Positions 41,941 through 55,665 are shown, counted from the stretch's first letter. The stretch is DNA of 64,000 bases from an uncultured Gammaproteobacteria bacterium (GCA_964424615.1 CAYRIU010000007.1:20052-84051); one strand, 5' to 3'. Numbers and translations: made by a program. The notes: generated from the sequence alone by a model not told the origin.

Positions 41941-42989
41941 TGTTTCAAAATTAAAGTAAAAGTTTCCTGGTTATCTACCTTTTTTTCTTTTAGTAAATTA
42001 TTTTTTATACTCTGATAAAAATCGGGCTGACGCATTTTTTCCATAGCCTGGACCAAAGCTTTTTGATTATTTATTGGTATGACTAGACCATGTATATTAT
42101 CTTGTATTATTTCTCTAGCACAGCCCACATCAGTCATAATCACTGGCAAATGACAATTCTTGGCCTCTACCGCTACTAGACCATAGCCTTCGCTGTCAGA
42201 GGTCAAAAGCAAACAATCAGCAGTATGATAAAGGTCGCCTAATTTTTCTTGCCAACCAAAAAATATAACTTGTTCTGTAATATGCAAATCGTCAGCTAAT
42301 TTTTTCAAATTATCTTTTTCTGGACCATCACCCACCACCACTAATTTTATTTTCTGCCGATCTGCTATATTTTTGATTGCAGCTAACTGCAATGCAATAT
42401 TTTTGACTGGAACCAAACGACCGACAGTCAAAAAAATAAAATGCTCCGGATAAATTTTGTGCAAATCAATAATATTGGTGTTAGATAAATTTTCTGTATT
42501 TATAACCACTGGAGCAATATAAATTTTATCGGCACTGACGCCATATTTTTCTATCAGATAATTTTTCAAACGCTGACTTACTACTCGCACCAAATCAGCA
42601 TTTTCTAAACATTTTTTGGCTAAATAATTTCTTAATATATTATTTTTTTCAAAACCATGTATTTGTACTTCATATTTCAAATGAAATTTTTTAGCTAAAA
42701 CTAGACCCAAAAAACCCAAAAAACCACTATCCTGGACAGTCAATAAGTCAAATTTTTCTTTTTGTAATAAACTATTTAAATTTTTATGGACATTAAATAA
42801 AGATGCAAATTTGTTAGAACCATCAATACCCCAAGCAATAACTTGAGCAGATAATTCAATCTTTTGCTCTTTAGCTGGCACCACTACTAAATATTTGTCT
42901 AGTTGATTAGCTAAAACAAGCGTCCGCTGGGCTACAGAAGATTGTGATTCAAATATTTTTTTATCTAAACTTAGAGATAATATTTTCAT
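41919..42989 (-). CDS. Glycosyltransferase family 4
   Basis: 356 aa, GT-B fold. Confidence 0.8.
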   Translation of the reverse strand: MKILSLSLDKKIFESQSSVAQRTLVLANQLDKYLVVVPAKEQKIELSAQVIAWGIDGSNKFASLFNVHKNLNSLLQKEKFDLLTVQDSGFLGFLGLVLAKKFHLKYEVQIHGFEKNNILRNYLAKKCLENADLVRVVSQRLKNYLIEKYGVSADKIYIAPVVINTENLSNTNIIDLHKIYPEHFIFLTVGRLVPVKNIALQLAAIKNIADRQKIKLVVVGDGPEKDNLKKLADDLHITEQVIFFGWQEKLGDLYHTADCLLLTSDSEGYGLVAVEAKNCHLPVIMTDVGCAREIIQDNIHGLVIPINNQKALVQAMEKMRQPDFYQSIKNNLLKEKKVDNQETFTLILKQWQAIKK

Positions 42990-44098
42990 GATTGTAATAT
43001 CTTTATAGTATCAATAGCGGCTTGATTATAAGAATAATTATAACTCAAATACTTTATTTTCTGGGAATAATTTATATAATTATTATCTTCTTCCAATTTT
43101 TGCAGACACTGAGTGATTTCTTCAATTTTTTGAGGATCAAACAAAATAATGTCTTTTTTTAACCAGTCAAAACCAATTTCCTGAGAACTAATAAAAGGAA
43201 TTTTGACTTGGATGCAATCCAACATGGTATTGGGACTGATATCACTCAAAGAGGGAAAGATCATTAATCTACTTTCGGCCATTTTTTTAATCAAATTATG
43301 TCTAGATAATTTTTCTGCTAAAACTATATTTTGATAGTTATTTTCCTTAATAAAAAATTCTAACTTACTTTTCAATGGTCCATCGCCAATCAAAACTAAT
43401 CTATATTTATCTTGCGACCAAGCGACAAAAGCTTTGACCAGATTAAAAATATTATTTTTATTTATAAAACGCCCAGCAAAAATAATATCATTATTAATAC
43501 GATTTTCATCCCGCTGAATATTTATTTTTTGGTCAATAGGATTCTGAACAACAGATAATTGTTTATTTGCTAAACCATAATAATGTTTTGTAAAAATATT
43601 TTTTTGCCACTCAGTAGTAAATATGACACCACGACACTGTTCAAAAATCCAATTGATTAATTTAAAACGATTGAGATCTTTTCTATACAAATCTTGTTCA
43701 TAATACTGATCTAGAGTTACCGACTCACTTTCTACGTATCTCTCCCAAATAAAATCACCACCGACTCTGATATAAAGTGGTTTGGCAAAAATACGACTGA
43801 TAGTAGCCGCTGGTAAACCAGCACTAAAATGATCAAAACAATAAATCAGATCATATTTTGGAGTTAATTTAAAAAGCGCCAAAAAATAACGCCAATAATT
43901 ACTTAATTTATTCTTACGTAAAACCCTATGAACCCTATATACCAAAGTTTTGTCTATATCGTATATTTCTTTATCAGAGTAGCATACTACTACTACTTGA
44001 TGACCTTGGGCCAAAAACTGCTCAGCAATAAGCGGAATATAGGTAGCTGGACCTCCTATCTCCGGTGCAAATATGCCTGTAGCAATAAGTATTTTCAT
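42986..44098 (-). CDS. Glycosyltransferase family 4
   Basis: 370 aa, GT-B fold. Confidence 0.8.
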   Translation of the reverse strand: MKILIATGIFAPEIGGPATYIPLIAEQFLAQGHQVVVVCYSDKEIYDIDKTLVYRVHRVLRKNKLSNYWRYFLALFKLTPKYDLIYCFDHFSAGLPAATISRIFAKPLYIRVGGDFIWERYVESESVTLDQYYEQDLYRKDLNRFKLINWIFEQCRGVIFTTEWQKNIFTKHYYGLANKQLSVVQNPIDQKINIQRDENRINNDIIFAGRFINKNNIFNLVKAFVAWSQDKYRLVLIGDGPLKSKLEFFIKENNYQNIVLAEKLSRHNLIKKMAESRLMIFPSLSDISPNTMLDCIQVKIPFISSQEIGFDWLKKDIILFDPQKIEEITQCLQKLEEDNNYINYSQKIKYLSYNYSYNQAAIDTIKILQS

Positions 44099-44108
44099 AT
44101 TTTATATA

Positions 44109-44316
44109 CGCCATTCTGGAATGACACAACAATTAAATATCTTTACTTAAATTTATCCGTCATTCTGGAGGCCGTAGGCCTATAGAATCCCATTGGGATC
44201 CTATCGCTGGACTTCCTCGTCATCCTGAACTTGTTTCAGGATCTCATTGGGATTCCGGATCACCCGCCCGCCATGACCGCCAGTCAGGCGTGTCGGGCGG
44301 GAGTCCGGAATGACAT
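44109..44316. repeat. GC-rich (~50%) structured island with nested inverted repeats, flanked by 11-nt direct repeats c(t/c)ggaatgaca
   Basis: ggaatgac (44120) pairs with gtcattc (44159); gtcatcc (44218) pairs with ggaatgac (44308). Hairpin cccgcccg/cgggcggg (44263-44303). Two copies of cattgggat. Composition contrasts with the ~33% GC surroundings. Confidence 0.5.
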
Positions 44317-44321
44317 AATAA

Positions 44322-44612
44322 CTAAAGCTCTTTACTCAAATCCTTCCAATCCTTATTAAACGAATCAATTAGTTTATTTTTCCAATCTCTATGCCAATTC
44401 TTCAACTGCTTTTCTCTAGAAATAGCCTCATAAACATCCTCATAAATTTCATAATAAACTAACTTATCTACATTATATCTACGAGTAAATCCTTTAGCTA
44501 CTTGCTCTTTGTGTTGAAATATTCGGCCTAATAAATTACTAGTGATGCCTACATACAAGACTGTGTTATTTTTATTTGTCAAAATATAGACAAAATATTG
44601 CTTGTCGTACAT
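44322..44612 (-). CDS. GIY-YIG nuclease family protein
   Basis: 96 aa. YFVYILTN...LYVGITSNLLGRIFQH...YYE...AISREKQLK is the GIY-YIG core. Confidence 0.85.
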   Translation of the reverse strand: MYDKQYFVYILTNKNNTVLYVGITSNLLGRIFQHKEQVAKGFTRRYNVDKLVYYEIYEDVYEAISREKQLKNWHRDWKNKLIDSFNKDWKDLSKEL

Positions 44613-44715
44613 AATCGCTTTTCTAGCCTGTATTTTAGCTAATAAAACTTGCTTTAGCCTTATAAATACTATAAAATTATACCAGAATAGCTAAAAATAA
44701 TCAATATATAAAATA

Positions 44716-44727
44716 GCTAATATTAGC
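44716..44727. promoter_or_regulatory. Perfect 12-bp palindrome GCTAATATTAGC, 15 nt upstream of the GT4 gene start; further TAGCTAA(T/A) half-sites at 44634-44647 and 44688-44700
   Basis: Seen directly in the sequence. Candidate operator for a dimeric regulator. Confidence 0.4.
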
Positions 44728-44741
44728 CAAAAAATCAATTT

Positions 44742-45923
44742 ATGACAGTAGATAAAAAACTAAGTGGTAAAAAAATATTATACCTCATCACCCAAACTAA
44801 ATGGGGTGGAGCTCAAAAATATGTCCTGGAGCTGGCTACATATTTTGCTAAAAATAATGAGGTACATATAGCCCATGGCGAGGTGGATCATCCTAATAAA
44901 AAATTTTTAGACTACTGCCAAAAACTAAATATCAAAACTATCCCCATAAAATATTTGGTACGCAACATAGACCTCAGTAATGAATTTTTGGCTACCAAAG
45001 AAATTACAAAATTGTTAAATAAAAATAACTATAATATCATACACCTCAATAGCTCAAAGGCAGGTGCCGTCGGCTCTCTGGCTAGTATGTTTTATAACTT
45101 TAACCCACTAAATGTCAAAGCTAAAATAATCTACACTGCTCATGGATATGTTTTTAACGAGCCTCTCAATACTCTAGTACGTCGAGCCTACATCATGTCT
45201 GAAACTTTCTCAGCTGGACTACAAAACAAAATAATAGCTGTCTCAGAATACGACAGGCAATCAGCTATAGATCAAAAAATATGTTTGCCAAACAAAATCA
45301 CAGCCATACATAATGGCGTCAATGAAGCGGATTATAATTTTTTACCAAAAGAAACTGCTCGAGCTGAACTAAAGCTTGATTCAAAATATAAGTATATCGG
45401 CACCATTGCTAGCTTTTACAAAGCCAAGGGCTATCATTATCTTGCTGAAGCTATCAAAATGATCAAAGACGAAACACCACATTTTTTGGAAACACATCGT
45501 TTCACTTGGATTGGTGATGGACCAGAGCTCACTGAAATACAAAAATATTTAGAAGAAAATAAATTATCAGAATATATCACTATCACTACACCGACTGACA
45601 ATGACTGGCGATTTATAAAAGCTTTTGACTATTTCGTCTTGCCATCGGTCAAAGAAGGTCTGCCATATTCCCTTTTGGAGGCTGGACTGGCTAAGATACC
45701 AGTGATTAGTACTGAGGTTGGTGGTATACCAGAGATTATCAAAAATAAAGACAATGGCTATCTGGTCACGCCAGCCAATCCCCTATCTCTCAAAAATGCC
45801 ATATTAGAACTCAGCGATAATCATGCCCTATCTCAAAATATAGCTGATAAAAATTATATTAATATCAAAGAAAATTTTTCTCTAGATAAAACCATCTTAG
45901 AAACAGAAAATATATATTTATAA
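44742..45923 (+). CDS. Glycosyltransferase family 4
   Basis: 393 aa. Glycos_transf_1 domain (LPSVKEGLPYSLLEAGLAKIPVISTEVGGIPEII). Confidence 0.85.
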   Translation: MTVDKKLSGKKILYLITQTKWGGAQKYVLELATYFAKNNEVHIAHGEVDHPNKKFLDYCQKLNIKTIPIKYLVRNIDLSNEFLATKEITKLLNKNNYNIIHLNSSKAGAVGSLASMFYNFNPLNVKAKIIYTAHGYVFNEPLNTLVRRAYIMSETFSAGLQNKIIAVSEYDRQSAIDQKICLPNKITAIHNGVNEADYNFLPKETARAELKLDSKYKYIGTIASFYKAKGYHYLAEAIKMIKDETPHFLETHRFTWIGDGPELTEIQKYLEENKLSEYITITTPTDNDWRFIKAFDYFVLPSVKEGLPYSLLEAGLAKIPVISTEVGGIPEIIKNKDNGYLVTPANPLSLKNAILELSDNHALSQNIADKNYINIKENFSLDKTILETENIYL

Positions 45924-49105: not shown

Positions 49106-52100
49106 TTAATTCTTAGATAGAGTCTGTGAATCAGTTGGTAAAACTTTGACATAGACAGAATCAGCCCAATCAGCTGAAGTACCATCAGAGGCATGAGGAC
49201 TTGCACTTCTATCTGACCAAATAAAGCCAGTTTCATACAATGACAATAAAGTCAAAGTTGTAGAAGTACCAGCTTCAGCAGTAGAAACGCCAGAAGCATT
49301 AATCTTGGTACCGAAAGATTGTGCGGATGCAGCACCAGTTATATCACCCTTCAACACATAAGTTTGTGTTGTACCTTTGGTAATGGTCTGATCGTTGGTT
49401 GTAGTGACAGTAATTGTCTTATTAGCCACGTTTAAATTTGGATAATAAGTATTCAAAGCTGTGGAGTCACCATCTTTGTACAACTTGATAGTACCATTGG
49501 TAATAGTGGTGGCACTGGTAGAAGCATAGGTCCAAGACATCTGTCTCCAGCTCAAATCAGCTACTGCATCAGCAGTGATTGAGAAGCGAGAAATTGTCTG
49601 AGTACCATTGTCTAATAAATTGGTTGGAAGTGCGACCAAGGCAATAGTTGGCTTGGTAGCTCTCACAATCATTACGTTACCAGTGACTGCACTTGGACCA
49701 GAGTAAGTAGTAGATCCAGATAGATCACCAATAGCGCTAAATTTATTAGAATCACTGCCATCAGCAGCAACTAGACTCAATTGAACAGCGTTATTGGCAC
49801 CAGTGATTGAACCACCAGAGAAGGTCGATAAATCAGCTTTGATGCTCAAAACTGCAGTACTGTCTTTATCTACAAACATACCTAAGTTGTAGAATTGAGC
49901 AATACCACTACCATTCAAATAAGCATAGGCAGTATTTGTACCTGTCTTAGTTGGATATTCAACAACCACTCTAGAAACAGGGGCAGTGAAACCACTTGTG
50001 TCATTTTTAACCTGTAGATTATTAATGACAAATGGTTCTTTTGTGGCAGTAAATTCAACTGAATTTACTAATACACCAGTCAAACCAGCCACGATGATAG
50101 TGGCATCTGGTTTGGCACCAGCGCTAGTGGCAGTGACACCGCCAGTAGCGACAGCCATGCTTTGTAAAGTTGTGTAGCTTGAAGTGACTGTTGTATTAGT
50201 GACGGCACTAGTACCATCAGCATTCATAGATAGATTGATAACGGCGCTAGCTAAACCGGATTTGACATCAGCATAGACATCGACCTGTTTGTTTTGACCG
50301 GCATTCAACACTAATCTGCTACCCATACTCAATGTAGTAGTACTGTTGGAAGAAGGCAAGGTTGTCTTGCTAGCCAATTCAGTAGTACCCAACATCAATC
50401 TCAAGTTCTGTAATTCACCAGAAGTAGCGCCAATAATATAAATATTATCAACGGTAACACCTTCTGTTGAACCAGCTGAGATGGTAAATGAAGCTATTTT
50501 AGCGCCAGTAGCTGGAGATGTTAAGTATTGATCACCATAAGCATTGTACTTAGCTGTACTCAAAGCTGAGGTGGTAACACTCAAAGTATTACCTTGGGCA
50601 GCTGGAAGAGTGACAGTTGACAAGGAAACTTGACCTTGTGCATCAGTGCTTGATGTGATGTCAACCTTGACACTACCAGTTGTAATATCAGCACTAGCTA
50701 CTGTTTTAATGTCGGCATAAATGTCGATCATCTTTGAGGTACCAGCTGGGACAATCAAGCTTGAGCCAAAGGTAAATAATGTACCTGCTTCAGCTATATT
50801 CTTTGTTGAACCAACTTGAACGCCATCAAAATAGACCTTACCATTTAACAAACCGCTACCAACAGTGGTAGTTGGGTCAACGGTAAAGCTCTTAATTTTA
50901 ACATCTTCACCATTGGCAGTTACCTTAAAGGTGGCTAATTTAATATTAGTACCTTTGGCAGTTACTGAACCAGAAGCAGAAGAGTTGTCACGAACTAATG
51001 ACAAAGTACCAGACTGTATATCGTATTGACCAGCTGGAGTCAAGGCAGTCCAAGAAGAACCATGTACAAATACATTGTAACCCTTGTCTCTAACTACTAA
51101 ATCGGAAGCGTATTGGACGCTAAATTTGAAGTTTCTGGTTGATCCTTTAATAATATCAGCTTTGACTGAGAAGGTCTTTGATTGACCCTTCAAAATATCA
51201 TAAGCGGAATTTGATAAATCAAAGTATAAAATACCATCAGCATCAAAATCAGCTACAGTGGCTAAAGTAGTGCCACCGACTTGCAATCTGAAATTGTTAA
51301 CATCACCAGTGGCAATGCTACCAATTTTGGTCAAACGCAAACCATGAAGAGCTAAATCTTGATCATTAGCAGCCAAGGTTAATTTGTAAACTTCAAAATC
51401 TTTTTCATCAGCATTAACAGTGACAGTGCCTGATGGAGTACCGTAATTACTGATAGTGGCGTAACCCAAATCAGAAGCTAAGGCGCTAGTCATTAAACTA
51501 CCAACTACAGGCAAAGCACCAGCAACTGATGAAGCGCTAGTAGTCAAAGCAGTCAAGTTAAAACCTAATGTGCGACCAGAAGCAGAAAGCACTGCTAGAT
51601 CAGCCTTTAACCAAACAGTCTTAGTGGCACCGGCTGGAATTGTGATAATACCATTGGCATCACTATCATTGAAGGTTAATACTTTTGTAGAAATAGAACC
51701 ACCATCAACTAACTTGGTGTTACCTTCATACAAATAAGCCTCGGCAATGTCAGCATCAGATGATATACCAGTGCGCTCAAATTTCATTTGAGTAACTTTG
51801 ACACTACCTTCATTAGAGGCGGTCAAATTGACAGCTAAAAATGGCACCATTGATTGGGATCCATTTGTATCATCGGAAATGATAGTAGCTGAAGCTGGAT
51901 TCATAGCTGACATAGAGACAGTCAAGGAACCAGGATTTGTTACTACTGGGGTATCATTTGGCATAAAGTCTTTGATAGCAGACTCAGCGCCAGTGATAGA
52001 TGAACCATCAGAGTAGCCAGTCAAGCTGGTCACAGTGACAGCGTCAGAAGCCATATAGCCATTGGCTGCGTAGGCAGCGTCAGAGGCAAAGGCTCTCTTG

Positions 52101-52651
52101 GTAGTACCATCAATGTAATACATGGTAGTACCCATCTTCACTACAGTACCAGTTGGATACATGGTGGATACATCAGCACCAGTGGTGTTGTAGGAAGCGA
52201 AGAAACCTGGAATCACGTCAACTAAACGTGAGGCCCAGTTGTCACCATATAAAGCTTTGGCGATGGTATCGGTTGGGATCCAGCGAGCCATACCGCCTGG
52301 TTCAATAGCATAAACCTTGGCAGTGTTCATATGAGTGACTAATTTGGTGCCAGGACGGACAGTCACAGCAGCACCATCTGCATACATATCTAGTTCGGCA
52401 ACAGCTACTCTGACAACTTTGTCAAAGTTTGGATACCAAGTAGCATATTCTTTCTGACTTGGAAAGACATGCTTCTTCATATCAGTACCGATCAAGTATA
52501 CAGCAGCGCCTGATTGACCCTTCAAGGCCAACAAGGAGCCGGCTGGGTAGCTACCAGCAGCGTTGGCCACTGGCACAAAAGAAGCGCCAACTGACCATAA
52601 CACAGTGGTAATCACCACGGAGTATACGAATAGTTTTTTTAATAAATTCAT
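49106..52651 (-). CDS. Large secreted Thr/Ser/Ala-rich surface protein (1181 aa)
   Basis: Signal peptide MNLLKKLFVYSVVITTVLWSVGASFVPVANA. Low-complexity beta-rich repeats throughout. TATAAT lies 12 nt upstream of the ATG (plus 52664-52669). Confidence 0.8.
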   Translation of the reverse strand: MNLLKKLFVYSVVITTVLWSVGASFVPVANAAGSYPAGSLLALKGQSGAAVYLIGTDMKKHVFPSQKEYATWYPNFDKVVRVAVAELDMYADGAAVTVRPGTKLVTHMNTAKVYAIEPGGMARWIPTDTIAKALYGDNWASRLVDVIPGFFASYNTTGADVSTMYPTGTVVKMGTTMYYIDGTTKRAFASDAAYAANGYMASDAVTVTSLTGYSDGSSITGAESAIKDFMPNDTPVVTNPGSLTVSMSAMNPASATIISDDTNGSQSMVPFLAVNLTASNEGSVKVTQMKFERTGISSDADIAEAYLYEGNTKLVDGGSISTKVLTFNDSDANGIITIPAGATKTVWLKADLAVLSASGRTLGFNLTALTTSASSVAGALPVVGSLMTSALASDLGYATISNYGTPSGTVTVNADEKDFEVYKLTLAANDQDLALHGLRLTKIGSIATGDVNNFRLQVGGTTLATVADFDADGILYFDLSNSAYDILKGQSKTFSVKADIIKGSTRNFKFSVQYASDLVVRDKGYNVFVHGSSWTALTPAGQYDIQSGTLSLVRDNSSASGSVTAKGTNIKLATFKVTANGEDVKIKSFTVDPTTTVGSGLLNGKVYFDGVQVGSTKNIAEAGTLFTFGSSLIVPAGTSKMIDIYADIKTVASADITTGSVKVDITSSTDAQGQVSLSTVTLPAAQGNTLSVTTSALSTAKYNAYGDQYLTSPATGAKIASFTISAGSTEGVTVDNIYIIGATSGELQNLRLMLGTTELASKTTLPSSNSTTTLSMGSRLVLNAGQNKQVDVYADVKSGLASAVINLSMNADGTSAVTNTTVTSSYTTLQSMAVATGGVTATSAGAKPDATIIVAGLTGVLVNSVEFTATKEPFVINNLQVKNDTSGFTAPVSRVVVEYPTKTGTNTAYAYLNGSGIAQFYNLGMFVDKDSTAVLSIKADLSTFSGGSITGANNAVQLSLVAADGSDSNKFSAIGDLSGSTTYSGPSAVTGNVMIVRATKPTIALVALPTNLLDNGTQTISRFSITADAVADLSWRQMSWTYASTSATTITNGTIKLYKDGDSTALNTYYPNLNVANKTITVTTTNDQTITKGTTQTYVLKGDITGAASAQSFGTKINASGVSTAEAGTSTTLTLLSLYETGFIWSDRSASPHASDGTSADWADSVYVKVLPTDSQTLSKN

Positions 52652-54436: not shown

Positions 54437-54991
54437 TTATTTATTGTTATTCAAAGATTTTAATTTATTGAGTGCCCTATGTATCAACACTCTGATATTA
54501 TTTTTATCCTTTTGCATGATCTGAGCTATGTCATCTATAGATAGATCTTCGACATAGCGTAAGATCAAAACTTCTTGATACTCTGGCTTCATCTTTTGTA
54601 ATAAGTCCAGCAGGGATTGTAAATCAATAGACTTATCAATACTGTCAGTCTTTTGATCAGTATATGGATCCTCTGTCTCATCAGCGTACTCGAGTGGCAA
54701 CTCTTGGCGTCTAGACAAGCGATAAAAATCAATAACGGCATTGCGGGCTACTCGAAAGATAAAAGCACCAAAATTTTGAATGTCTTTTTTATCTACCAGA
54801 TGTTGCCAAGTCTTCAAAAATATATCTTGCGTAATATCTTGAGCCACAGCTTTATCGCTGACCCTAATATAGACAAATCGATAAACCCTGGTCATATATT
54901 GGTCATAAAAAAAAGCAAAAGCTTCAGAATCGCCATTTTTCAGCTTTAGCAACTGTATTTTCTCTTGTAAACTATCCTTCAAACTGTACAT
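54437..54991 (-). CDS. ECF-family sigma-70 factor
   Basis: 184 aa. Region 2 (FYDQYMTRVYRFVYIRV...DITQDIFLKTW) and region 4 HTH (QEVLILRYVEDLSIDDIAQIM...IRVLIHRALNKLK). Confidence 0.88.
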   Translation of the reverse strand: MYSLKDSLQEKIQLLKLKNGDSEAFAFFYDQYMTRVYRFVYIRVSDKAVAQDITQDIFLKTWQHLVDKKDIQNFGAFIFRVARNAVIDFYRLSRRQELPLEYADETEDPYTDQKTDSIDKSIDLQSLLDLLQKMKPEYQEVLILRYVEDLSIDDIAQIMQKDKNNIRVLIHRALNKLKSLNNNK

Positions 54992-55169
54992 AAATATAGA
55001 CGGGCTTAATCTAGAAATATTACACCCTAATTAGGCCAATTAGGCCATATTTTACACTATAATGCCCACAAATGTAAATCGTGGTAATATATAGACCACA
55101 TTATACCAGAATTTGCTATGTTTGTAAAGTATCACAAATGGCTTAAAAATTAAGATATATCAGTAAAAA

Positions 55170-55290
55170 CGGCGCGGTGGACTATGAAAATGTCATTGCG
55201 AGGAGTGTAAACGACGAAGCAATCTATAAGCTGGTAGATTGCCACGTCCCGCCGCGCGGGACTCGCAATGACATTAAGACCACCGCGCCG
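55170..55290. repeat. GC-rich 121-nt long imperfect hairpin (11-bp and 11-bp outer stems plus an inner 7-bp hairpin)
   Basis: cggcgcggtgg (55170-80) pairs with ccaccgcgccg (55280-90). gtcattgcgag (55192-202) pairs with ctcgcaatgac (55262-72). Inner gtcccgc-cgc-gcgggac at 55246-62. Confidence 0.6.
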
Positions 55291-55374
55291 TACTGTTAAT
55301 AACCGTCTCTTAAATTGACTATTAATTGATTAAGGTATAGAATAGTGTATACATAAATACTTATTTTAGATCAT

Positions 55375-55665
55375 ATGGAGAATATAATTAGACTATCAGT
55401 ATCAGAGGCTGCCAAACTAATTGGGGTATCATCCAAAACAATCAGGCAGGCTATCAAAGCTGAAGAGCTAACCTACATAGTAGTCAAAGGACGTTATAAA
55501 ATAAGTTTTGCCTCTCTAGTGGAGTGGTCGCAAAAATCAACCAGAAGATACCACCAATTACAAAAACAAGGTGTCGGGCAATTTGTAGACCAATGGAAAA
55601 TACGCAACAAAAAATATAGCCCAAATCCTGAATTGATCAATAAAAAAATACCCCCTCTGTCCTAG
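55375..55665 (+). CDS. Excisionase-family/MerR-like helix-turn-helix DNA-binding protein (HTH_17)
   Basis: 96 aa. LSVSEAAKLIGVSSKTIRQAIKAEELTYIVVKGRYKISFASLVEW matches the excisionase-family HTH. The last 7 codons run into repeat copy B. Confidence 0.7.
   Translation: MENIIRLSVSEAAKLIGVSSKTIRQAIKAEELTYIVVKGRYKISFASLVEWSQKSTRRYHQLQKQGVGQFVDQWKIRNKKYSPNPELINKKIPPLS

Follow-up and report, generated by a model that had tools for sequence, protein, structure and literature searches.

The spacer between a small GIY-YIG nuclease gene and the glycosyltransferase gene downstream of it forms a GC-rich island in AT-rich DNA, which raises the question of what this island is and whether it belongs to the nuclease gene. 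The window, meaning the whole 64-kb stretch of DNA that was analysed, has a GC content of 35.1%, and its highest 80-nt GC peak (0.62) falls in the island. A first-pass annotation had described a segment of about 50% GC bounded by 11-nt direct repeats, had taken these repeats for a target-site duplication, and had proposed a MITE, an insertion associated with a homing endonuclease, or a structured ncRNA. Its description of the DNA largely held: GC content was 50.3% for 44128-44304 and 57.6% for 44158-44315, the second 11-mer (CCGGAATGACA) lies at 44305-44315 and 6 nt from the stop codon of the GIY-YIG gene, and the inverted motifs and strong hairpin (ATTCCGGA/TCCGGAAT, ATCCTGAA/TTCAGGAT and CCCGCCCGCCA/TGTCGGGCGGG) are present, as are two CATTGGGAT units (within 44184-44199 and 44238-44253). 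The first 11-mer (CTGGAATGACA) was found as well, at 44116-44126 and not at 44117-44127, i.e. off by one. The reading favoured here, with a probability of almost nine in ten, is that the island is an array of SRM/NTS-like hairpin repeats directly 3' of its own ssn gene, the product of which would be an Ssn-family enzyme. The suspected link between the island and the adjoining GIY-YIG gene would then be a functional one.

The gene and its downstream neighbour are located as follows:

44322-44612, minus strand: ssn, an ORF for a 96-aa single-domain GIY-YIG nuclease, assigned by homology to the Ssn family; stop codon TAG at 44322-44324
42986-44098, minus strand: downstream GT4 glycosyltransferase gene with its start at 44098, the syntenic anchor

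Ssn proteins are single-domain GIY-YIG enzymes of about 94 aa (CDD cd10448; Chenal et al., Nat Commun 2025, PMC11893778), and characterised members come from Neisseria, N. elongata, N. wadsworthii, and Wolbachia (PMC11893778). The 96-aa protein carries a single Pfam domain (PF01541, GIY-YIG, E 3e-21, residues 5-78) with no second domain, and its length falls within the range for such proteins (about 94-150 aa, single GIY-YIG domain). Homology to the family was evident from BLASTP against the N. gonorrhoeae SsnA orthologue, which gave 51% identity over 88 of 96 residues with zero gaps (E 5e-34) and therefore places the protein inside the published definition of an Ssn homologue (BLASTP to Neisseria SsnA at E < 1e-10, at least 75% query coverage; PMC11893778). 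Y9, Y20, and E67, which are invariant among 20 homologues, align with Y6, Y17, and E64 of the N. gonorrhoeae protein. This reference was the N. gonorrhoeae orthologue, not the N. meningitidis accession itself, and was recognised by its length, the Y6/Y17/E64 positions, its NTS flanks, and its being the sole match in the chromosome: the window protein found one tblastn match per chromosome in two 2.17-Mb N. gonorrhoeae chromosomes, and the matching ORF encodes a 94-aa protein whose Y6, Y17, and E64 agree with the published SsnA mutants. Nine canonical NTS lie in 2.7 kb at that ssnA locus, and an NTS-like unit begins 2 nt past the stop of the 94-aa ORF. PLSDB files the two 2.17-Mb chromosomes as plasmids (NZ_CP119140.1, here L093, and NZ_CP119142.1). 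A PDB sequence search returned no structure of the Ssn family, the nearest entry being UPF0213 BH0048 (E 0.12), and no NCBIfam profile scored above its cutoff on the 96-aa protein. The window's neighbours and homologues are annotated as Patescibacteria.

Ssn enzymes bind a hairpin repeat, the NTS (CGTCATTCCCGCGMAVGCGGGAATCYRG), or Ssn-related motifs (SRM), and do so only as ssDNA; cleavage falls a few nt upstream (5') of the GTC of the motif, cutting depends most on the three bases before the palindrome, and binding depends most on the C after it (PMC11893778). SRMs of 20-50 nt flank 71% of ssnA homologues within 500 bp, and 42% have them on both sides (PMC11893778). Read on the ssn strand, the 223-nt spacer that separates ssn from the co-oriented GT4 gene has the motif architecture of a modular array of GTC-AT…stem…loop…stem…AT-C hairpin units, listed here from the gene outwards:

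44315-44321, minus strand: 7-nt linker TTATTAT between the ssn stop and U1 (kept as TTATTAT or TTGTTAT in orthologues)
44251-44314, sense on the minus strand: unit U1, GTC-ATTCCGGA-47-nt loop region with a 39-nt apical hairpin-TCCGGAAT-C
44252-44259 and 44304-44311: inverted pair ATTCCGGA/TCCGGAAT
44263-44301, no strand: GC-rich apical hairpin of 39 nt (CCCGCCCG...CGGGCGGG) in the U1 loop, CT^TGA
44263-44273 and 44291-44301: inverted pair CCCGCCCGCCA/TGTCGGGCGGG
44244-44250, no strand: 7-nt spacer TCATTGG between the 3' ends of U2 and U1, which together form convergent doublet 1
44218-44243 (GTC from 44219), sense on the plus strand: unit U2, C-GTC-ATCCTGAA-CTTGT-TTCAGGAT-C
44222-44229 and 44235-44242: inverted pair ATCCTGAA/TTCAGGAT
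44197-44217, minus strand: degenerate 3' half-unit (...CCAGCGATAGGATC), partner of U3, assigned by eye
44190-44196: spacer CCATTGG after U3, completing convergent doublet 2
44158-44189 (GTC from 44159), sense on the plus strand: unit U3, C-GTC-ATTCTGGAGGCC-GTA-GGCCTATAGAAT-C
44126-44156, minus strand: relic of the ssn 3' end (...NLSKDI*) and linker TTGTTGT; stop at 44133-44135
44110-44125, minus strand: collapsed or truncated unit GTCATTCCAGAATGGC beside the GT4 gene start

All three units, and both units of a second cluster at 55.2 kb described below, have GTC directly 5' and C directly 3' of the palindrome. The NTS can be written C-GTC-ATTCCCGCG-MAV-GCGGGAAT-C-YRG, and the units here GTC-ATTCCGGA...TCCGGAAT-C, GTC-ATCCTGAA-CTTGT-TTCAGGAT-C, and GTC-ATTCTGG...AGAAT-C. 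The three units and the remnants lie at most 215 nt from the ssn stop codon, i.e. within the published 500 bp, and on one side only, as the 129-nt 5' spacer of ssn holds no SRM unit. At 64 nt, U1 is longer than the published size range. The published SRM string, HGTCWYN(0-2)YYVSBRHN(0-5)WNVSBRGN(0-2)RNCYNB, had 0 matches in the window, so that the units fall outside the formal definition; they sit 2-5 substitutions from the string, as compared with 0 for the canonical NTS. An 11-nt palindrome spans the junction at the half-unit 44197-44217, and in the unit GTCATTCCAGAATGGC only the two outer halves of a doublet seem to be left.

The island folds far better than shuffled sequence on both strands (z = -6.4 and -5.3). 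Strict GTCA-stem-loop-stem-C hairpins with arms of at least 6 nt number 4 in 64 kb, 2 of them in the island, against a shuffle mean of 1.6, and GTCAT hairpins with 5-nt arms number 10 in the window (shuffles: mean 2.8, maximum 8), with half of these ten held by two tight clusters. The GC peak of the island is caused by the 39-nt apical hairpin of U1. This hairpin is a clean indel that is absent from L004-L007, and the orthologue in L004 has a U1-type unit with a 5-nt loop, GTCATTCCGGGCTTGACCCGGAATC. Among the fetched loci L001-L093, no match to it was found beyond the same organism, where it recurs in at least two further samples (L002 and L003); it may have arisen by nested insertion or by hairpin extension. 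GC-rich apical mini-hairpins were also seen in other SRMs, namely in L090, L033, L055, and U3.

The gene-motif association was then visible across the family, which numbers at least 7,995 matches at E <= 1e-3. At 80 homologue-bearing genome loci, which span more than 15 phyla and 51-73% identity, the sequence directly after the stop is nearly always a GTCAT...ATC or GAT...ATGAC hairpin, and the density of units found with the strict detector was 2.7/kb in the downstream and 2.1/kb in the upstream 250-nt flank, falling to 0.27/kb farther off. When 5-nt arms are allowed, 78 of 85 homologue loci have a unit no farther than 260 nt from the gene. The published SRM string matched downstream at 5/80 loci (11 matches over both 250-nt flanks), and because it matches so few loci even though most visibly have units, the string is suggested to be too narrow. 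Individual units of the island recur elsewhere too. Near-identical counterparts of U2 adjoin ssn homologues in at least eight other genomes, with U2-like units in L014 (Elusimicrobiales), L018 (Atrimonadaceae), L015 (Gastranaerophilales), and L030 (Bacteroidales), among others. U3 is 94% identical over 32 nt to a unit beside the ssn homologue of L010 (Komeilibacteria), upstream of which a ...GGAGCATAGCGATAGGATC sequence resembles the half-unit 44197-44217. In L026, L031, and L069, the tblastn match continues past an in-frame stop, by 60, 255, and 126 nt, respectively, and these copies may be pseudogenes.

Additional copies of the island had been suggested as a check. Such copies exist as a second doublet in the window and as dispersed 25-mers elsewhere; the 39-nt hairpin, on the other hand, went unmatched in L004-L093. 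The exact U1-type 25-mer, in its L004 form, occurs in at least 120 metagenome stretches, flanked like the NTS by Y before and CAG after and often arranged in convergent doublets. The 80 loci with this 25-mer that were read had 33-66% GC, and none encoded an ssn homologue in the sequence examined.

In five Patescibacteria lineages, ssn sits between the same pair of glycosyltransferase genes, at protein identities as low as 77%, and dN/dS values of 0.08-0.29 among the 5 syntenic orthologues indicate purifying selection. The spacer lengths in these lineages are 223, 143, 109, 93, and 75 nt. Every syntenic spacer consists of a forward unit, a spacer of ~8 nt, and a reverse unit with conserved flanks outside, and this layout is filled with the spacers CCAATGAG, CCAGTGAG or CCATTGG across all five orthologues. 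The stems vary (ATTCCGG, ATCCTGA or ATTGCGAG) yet stay complementary, which amounts to compensatory changes. The polymorphism that had been expected of the island was also found, in that it differs among relatives by insertions and deletions. As judged from these loci, the ssn-GT4 site is old and its contents turn over. A B12-binding radical-SAM gene, absent in the window, lies between the downstream glycosyltransferases in L004:3557-4993 and L090:4528-5964, and at L091:1833-2681 an inserted Bro-N gene separates the upstream glycosyltransferase from ssn.

The second cluster consists of one doublet:

55192-55224, plus strand: forward unit GTCATTGCGAGGAGTGTAAACGACGAAGCAATC, of another stem type (ATTGC)
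55237-55272, minus strand: reverse unit GTCATTGCGAGTCCCGCGCGGCGGGACGTGGCAATC, convergent with 55192-55224

A 15-nt outer inverted repeat (55169-55183 and 55277-55291) encloses this doublet. The doublet sits in the spacer from which an ECF sigma-factor gene (54437-54991, minus strand) and an HTH_17 gene (55375-55665, plus strand) diverge. The pattern GTCATYCYGRA and the strict scan miss the ATTGC doublet. Two other GC-rich islands, 50071-50191 and 52471-52621, sit within a 1181-aa ORF (49106-52651, minus strand), where the sole unit-like match looked like chance. A 40-aa ORF at 55177-55299 (…VIARSVNDEAI…) is only the translated repeat. The relatives L215 and L216 have GTCATTGCGAG units at the second site, and L214 has unrelated sequence without an SRM. 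L214:2160-2330 and L215:2085-2260 retain the outer inverted repeat, GGCGCGGTG…CACCGCGCC, around a wholly different interior, which in L215 is a single long hairpin between GTCATTGCGAG and CTCGCAATGAC. Next to the sigma-factor neighbours, none of L214, L215, and L216 showed a clean empty site, and this location, too, appears from the aligned relatives to be a fixed site with turnover. Taken together, the 64-kb window, which is part of a genome, holds two SRM clusters with 5 units, 10.9 kb apart.

These data bear on how the island arose. A GC-rich segment flanked by direct repeats, with a spacer length that varies among relatives, is what would be expected of an insertion, such as a MITE, with an 11-nt target-site duplication at its ends, but the repeat does not end after 11 nt: it extends to 38 nt (44115-44152 and 44304-44341) with 31 of 38 positions identical, as compared with a best 38-mer match of 26 (mean 21.4) in 300 shuffles of the 451-nt region. 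The gene-side copy is made up of the last ~20-24 nt of the ssn ORF, the stop, the 7-nt linker, and the first 11 nt of a unit. Since the repeat spans gene end, stop, and linker, it is a duplicated gene-end junction and not a target-site duplication, and the far copy, which contains the ssn-end relic, is a decayed duplicate (82% identical). Moreover, the segment is modular (three units and remnants) and lacks terminal inverted repeats of its own, and no relative has a single 11-mer without an insert; the site was filled with other hairpin units instead. With an occupied site of changing contents in relatives, the reading as a MITE with a target-site duplication fails, and I regard it as highly improbable. 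An even smaller chance is given to the reading in which the gene encodes a free-standing GIY-YIG homing endonuclease and the island holds the site that it recognises or inserts into. A stand-alone GIY-YIG ORF does adjoin an island of atypical base composition, but the protein is a single 96-aa domain without a DNA-binding extension, it holds its syntenic position in the five lineages under purifying selection, and the NCBIfam model for group I intron endonucleases scored 20 bits against a cutoff of 56. The hairpins might instead act as RNA. Lying between ssn and the glycosyltransferase gene, they could stabilise the 3' UTR or serve as attenuators or terminators, or they could form a structured ncRNA. 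Their strong predicted folding on both strands and their position in a 3' UTR or intercistronic spacer would suit such a role, and REP elements play such RNA-level roles in E. coli (10.64898/2026.03.23.713779). However, Rfam at permissive and gathering thresholds returned only noise (mir-341, HgcE, ceN63, and PreQ1 at 15-18 bits, E ~1), a tRNA/tmRNA scan found none, and a terminator scan of 43900-44900 detected neither a terminator nor a T-tract. Asymmetric GTC...C flanks on both strands would be unexpected for one transcript, orthologues do not conserve unit identity, and the characterised enzyme SsnA does not bind RNA (PMC11893778). An RNA-level function is thus unlikely.

The doublets could also be REPIN-like non-autonomous mobile elements, with Ssn as the domesticated transposase-like nuclease that copies or moves them and the array beside ssn as the home copy; this would be compatible with the main explanation. 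The doublets are convergent and resemble REPINs, identical 25-mers occur away from ssn in many unrelated genomes, close relatives differ by the presence or absence of whole units, and an IS-like NTS-ssnA-NTS layout was raised as a hypothesis by the authors of PMC11893778. On the other side, neither cluster has an empty site or a target-site duplication, and relatives have occupied sites with different contents. The 64 kb hold two clusters only, and ssn itself is syntenic and under purifying selection. GIY-YIG enzymes are not known to have strand-transfer activity, which also counts against mobility of this kind. Overall, mobile doublets seem doubtful.

An Ssn-SRM array offers the following route, in which ssDNA binding and cutting by the 96-aa protein would follow the published enzymes. 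Replication, repair or DNA uptake would make the island DNA single-stranded, and each unit could then fold into a hairpin. Ssn would bind the hairpin together with the C directly 3' of it, and the GTC before the hairpin would serve as the cleavage determinant, so that the strand is cut a few nt 5' of the unit. For U1, the cut would be expected within the TTATTAT linker zone, 44315-44321. U1 has its sense strand on the ssn strand, and U2 and U3 have theirs on the opposite strand; because units in convergent doublets place at least one sense unit on each strand, either strand could be cut. The array itself would represent a fixed site whose contents turn over as units are replaced, loops lengthen, and recombination occurs, and not one single insertion. 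Given the differing stem types, the enzyme may act on only some of the units if its specificity is narrow. Its roles in Patescibacteria might include control over recombination of incoming ssDNA as in Neisseria, repeat maintenance, or another function; for Neisseria, Ssn/NTS has been proposed to modulate recombination of incoming ssDNA (PMC11893778). The repeat arrays here are recombination junctions, which echoes that proposal.

An Ssn-SRM locus as such is a known system and is ordinary to readers of PMC11893778. The Neisseria Ssn/NTS system shares with it a single GIY-YIG domain of ~95 aa (51% identity, Y/Y/E conserved), GTC 5' and C 3' of the palindrome, and units beside the gene on both strands. 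The locus differs in its Patescibacteria host, in AT-richer stems that are missed by the published SRM string, in having units on the 3' side only and one unit of 64 nt in total with a 39-nt apical extension, and in its very few copies in 64 kb as opposed to 9 NTS in 2.7 kb at N. gonorrhoeae ssnA. Neisseria dRS3/NIME arrays likewise have ATTCC...GGAAT palindromes in alternating orientation, short variable segments, and recombination mosaics, but they are high-copy and Neisseria-specific, whereas the array here is small, at fixed sites, and of mixed stem types. REP/BIME/REPIN-RAYT systems also have a nuclease gene in single copy with hairpin repeats of its own on either side, as well as convergent doublets, and would share the recognition of ssDNA hairpins with an asymmetric flanking tag. 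RAYTs are HUH/Y1 enzymes (IS200/IS605-like), an unrelated fold to the GIY-YIG enzyme here; the repeats here are low in copy number, and the layout alone is analogous. The GIY-YIG homing endonucleases I-TevI and Seg have the same catalytic domain; in contrast to the single-domain, stably syntenic ssn, they use a separate DNA-binding domain, cut dsDNA, and are sporadic.

For annotation, this means that GC-rich hairpin islands of this kind beside small GIY-YIG genes can be annotated as Ssn recognition repeats, not as spurious ORFs, MITEs or ncRNAs. The Ssn family of 2025 is extended to Patescibacteria. Since the published string misses three abundant unit types (with ATTCCGG, ATCCTGAA, and ATTGCGAG stems), the repeat census is probably an underestimate. 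What goes beyond PMC11893778 is the too-narrow motif, the orthologue series, and a co-variation between the C-terminus of Ssn and the stem type of the adjoining units. The orthologue series amounts to a natural experiment, with one site, differing units, and one chimeric gene, and it indicates that repeat specificity is probably set by the C-terminal tail.

Among the 85 loci, a K-x-W-x-R-x-W-K C-terminus adjoins ATYCY-stem units in 20/24 cases and a G-S-R-x-K-K C-terminus adjoins ATTGC-stem units in 33/35 (Fisher p ~1e-11, uncorrected for phylogeny). Mean identity of the N-terminal core was 0.58 within WxRxW, 0.68 within GSR, and 0.59 between the types, which does not separate them; the C-terminal region does, with 0.57-0.60 within and 0.44 between types. 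Within this Patescibacteria clade, the core is 91% identical between the two C-terminal types; the cores of P0001 and P0005 (WxRxW) match that of P0012 (GSRxKK) at 90-94%. The window has one ssn gene, of the WxRxW type; its ATTGC doublet at 55.2 kb might thus be non-cognate or a relic, or a second gene in another part of the genome might serve it.

The orthologue in L004 (protein P0005) is, by its pattern of identities, a natural chimera: flanks and the N-terminal 71 residues are of the GSR lineage, and the C-terminal 25 residues and the SRM doublet are window-like. Sliding-window identity showed L004 to be L090-like (~0.8-0.98, mostly about 0.9) in the flanking genes and upstream spacer. From ~nt 180 of ssn to ~nt 350, identity was 0.83-0.95 to the window over most of the stretch and 0.19-0.63 to L090, and this window-like stretch (L004:2176-2345) comprises the C-terminal third of ssn and the first SRM doublet. 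P0005 differs from the GSR-type P0012 and P0013 at 3-4 of the first 71 and at 13 of the last 25 residues, and from the window protein at just 3 of the last 25. Tentatively, the last ~25 residues of Ssn may form a specificity module that can be exchanged and that moves along with the hairpin repeats cognate to it. If so, recombination with breakpoints within both ssn and the repeat array would swap Ssn-SRM cassettes, and ssDNA nucleases could be re-targeted by way of the C-terminal tail. The main text of PMC11893778 mentions neither the C-terminus nor any specificity determinant, and a literature search found no follow-up to it. Some database Ssn proteins (P0066, P0080, and P0088) end in tails like LLGDAETSSA or DAEMNSA, which are a reverse SRM translated through a late stop.
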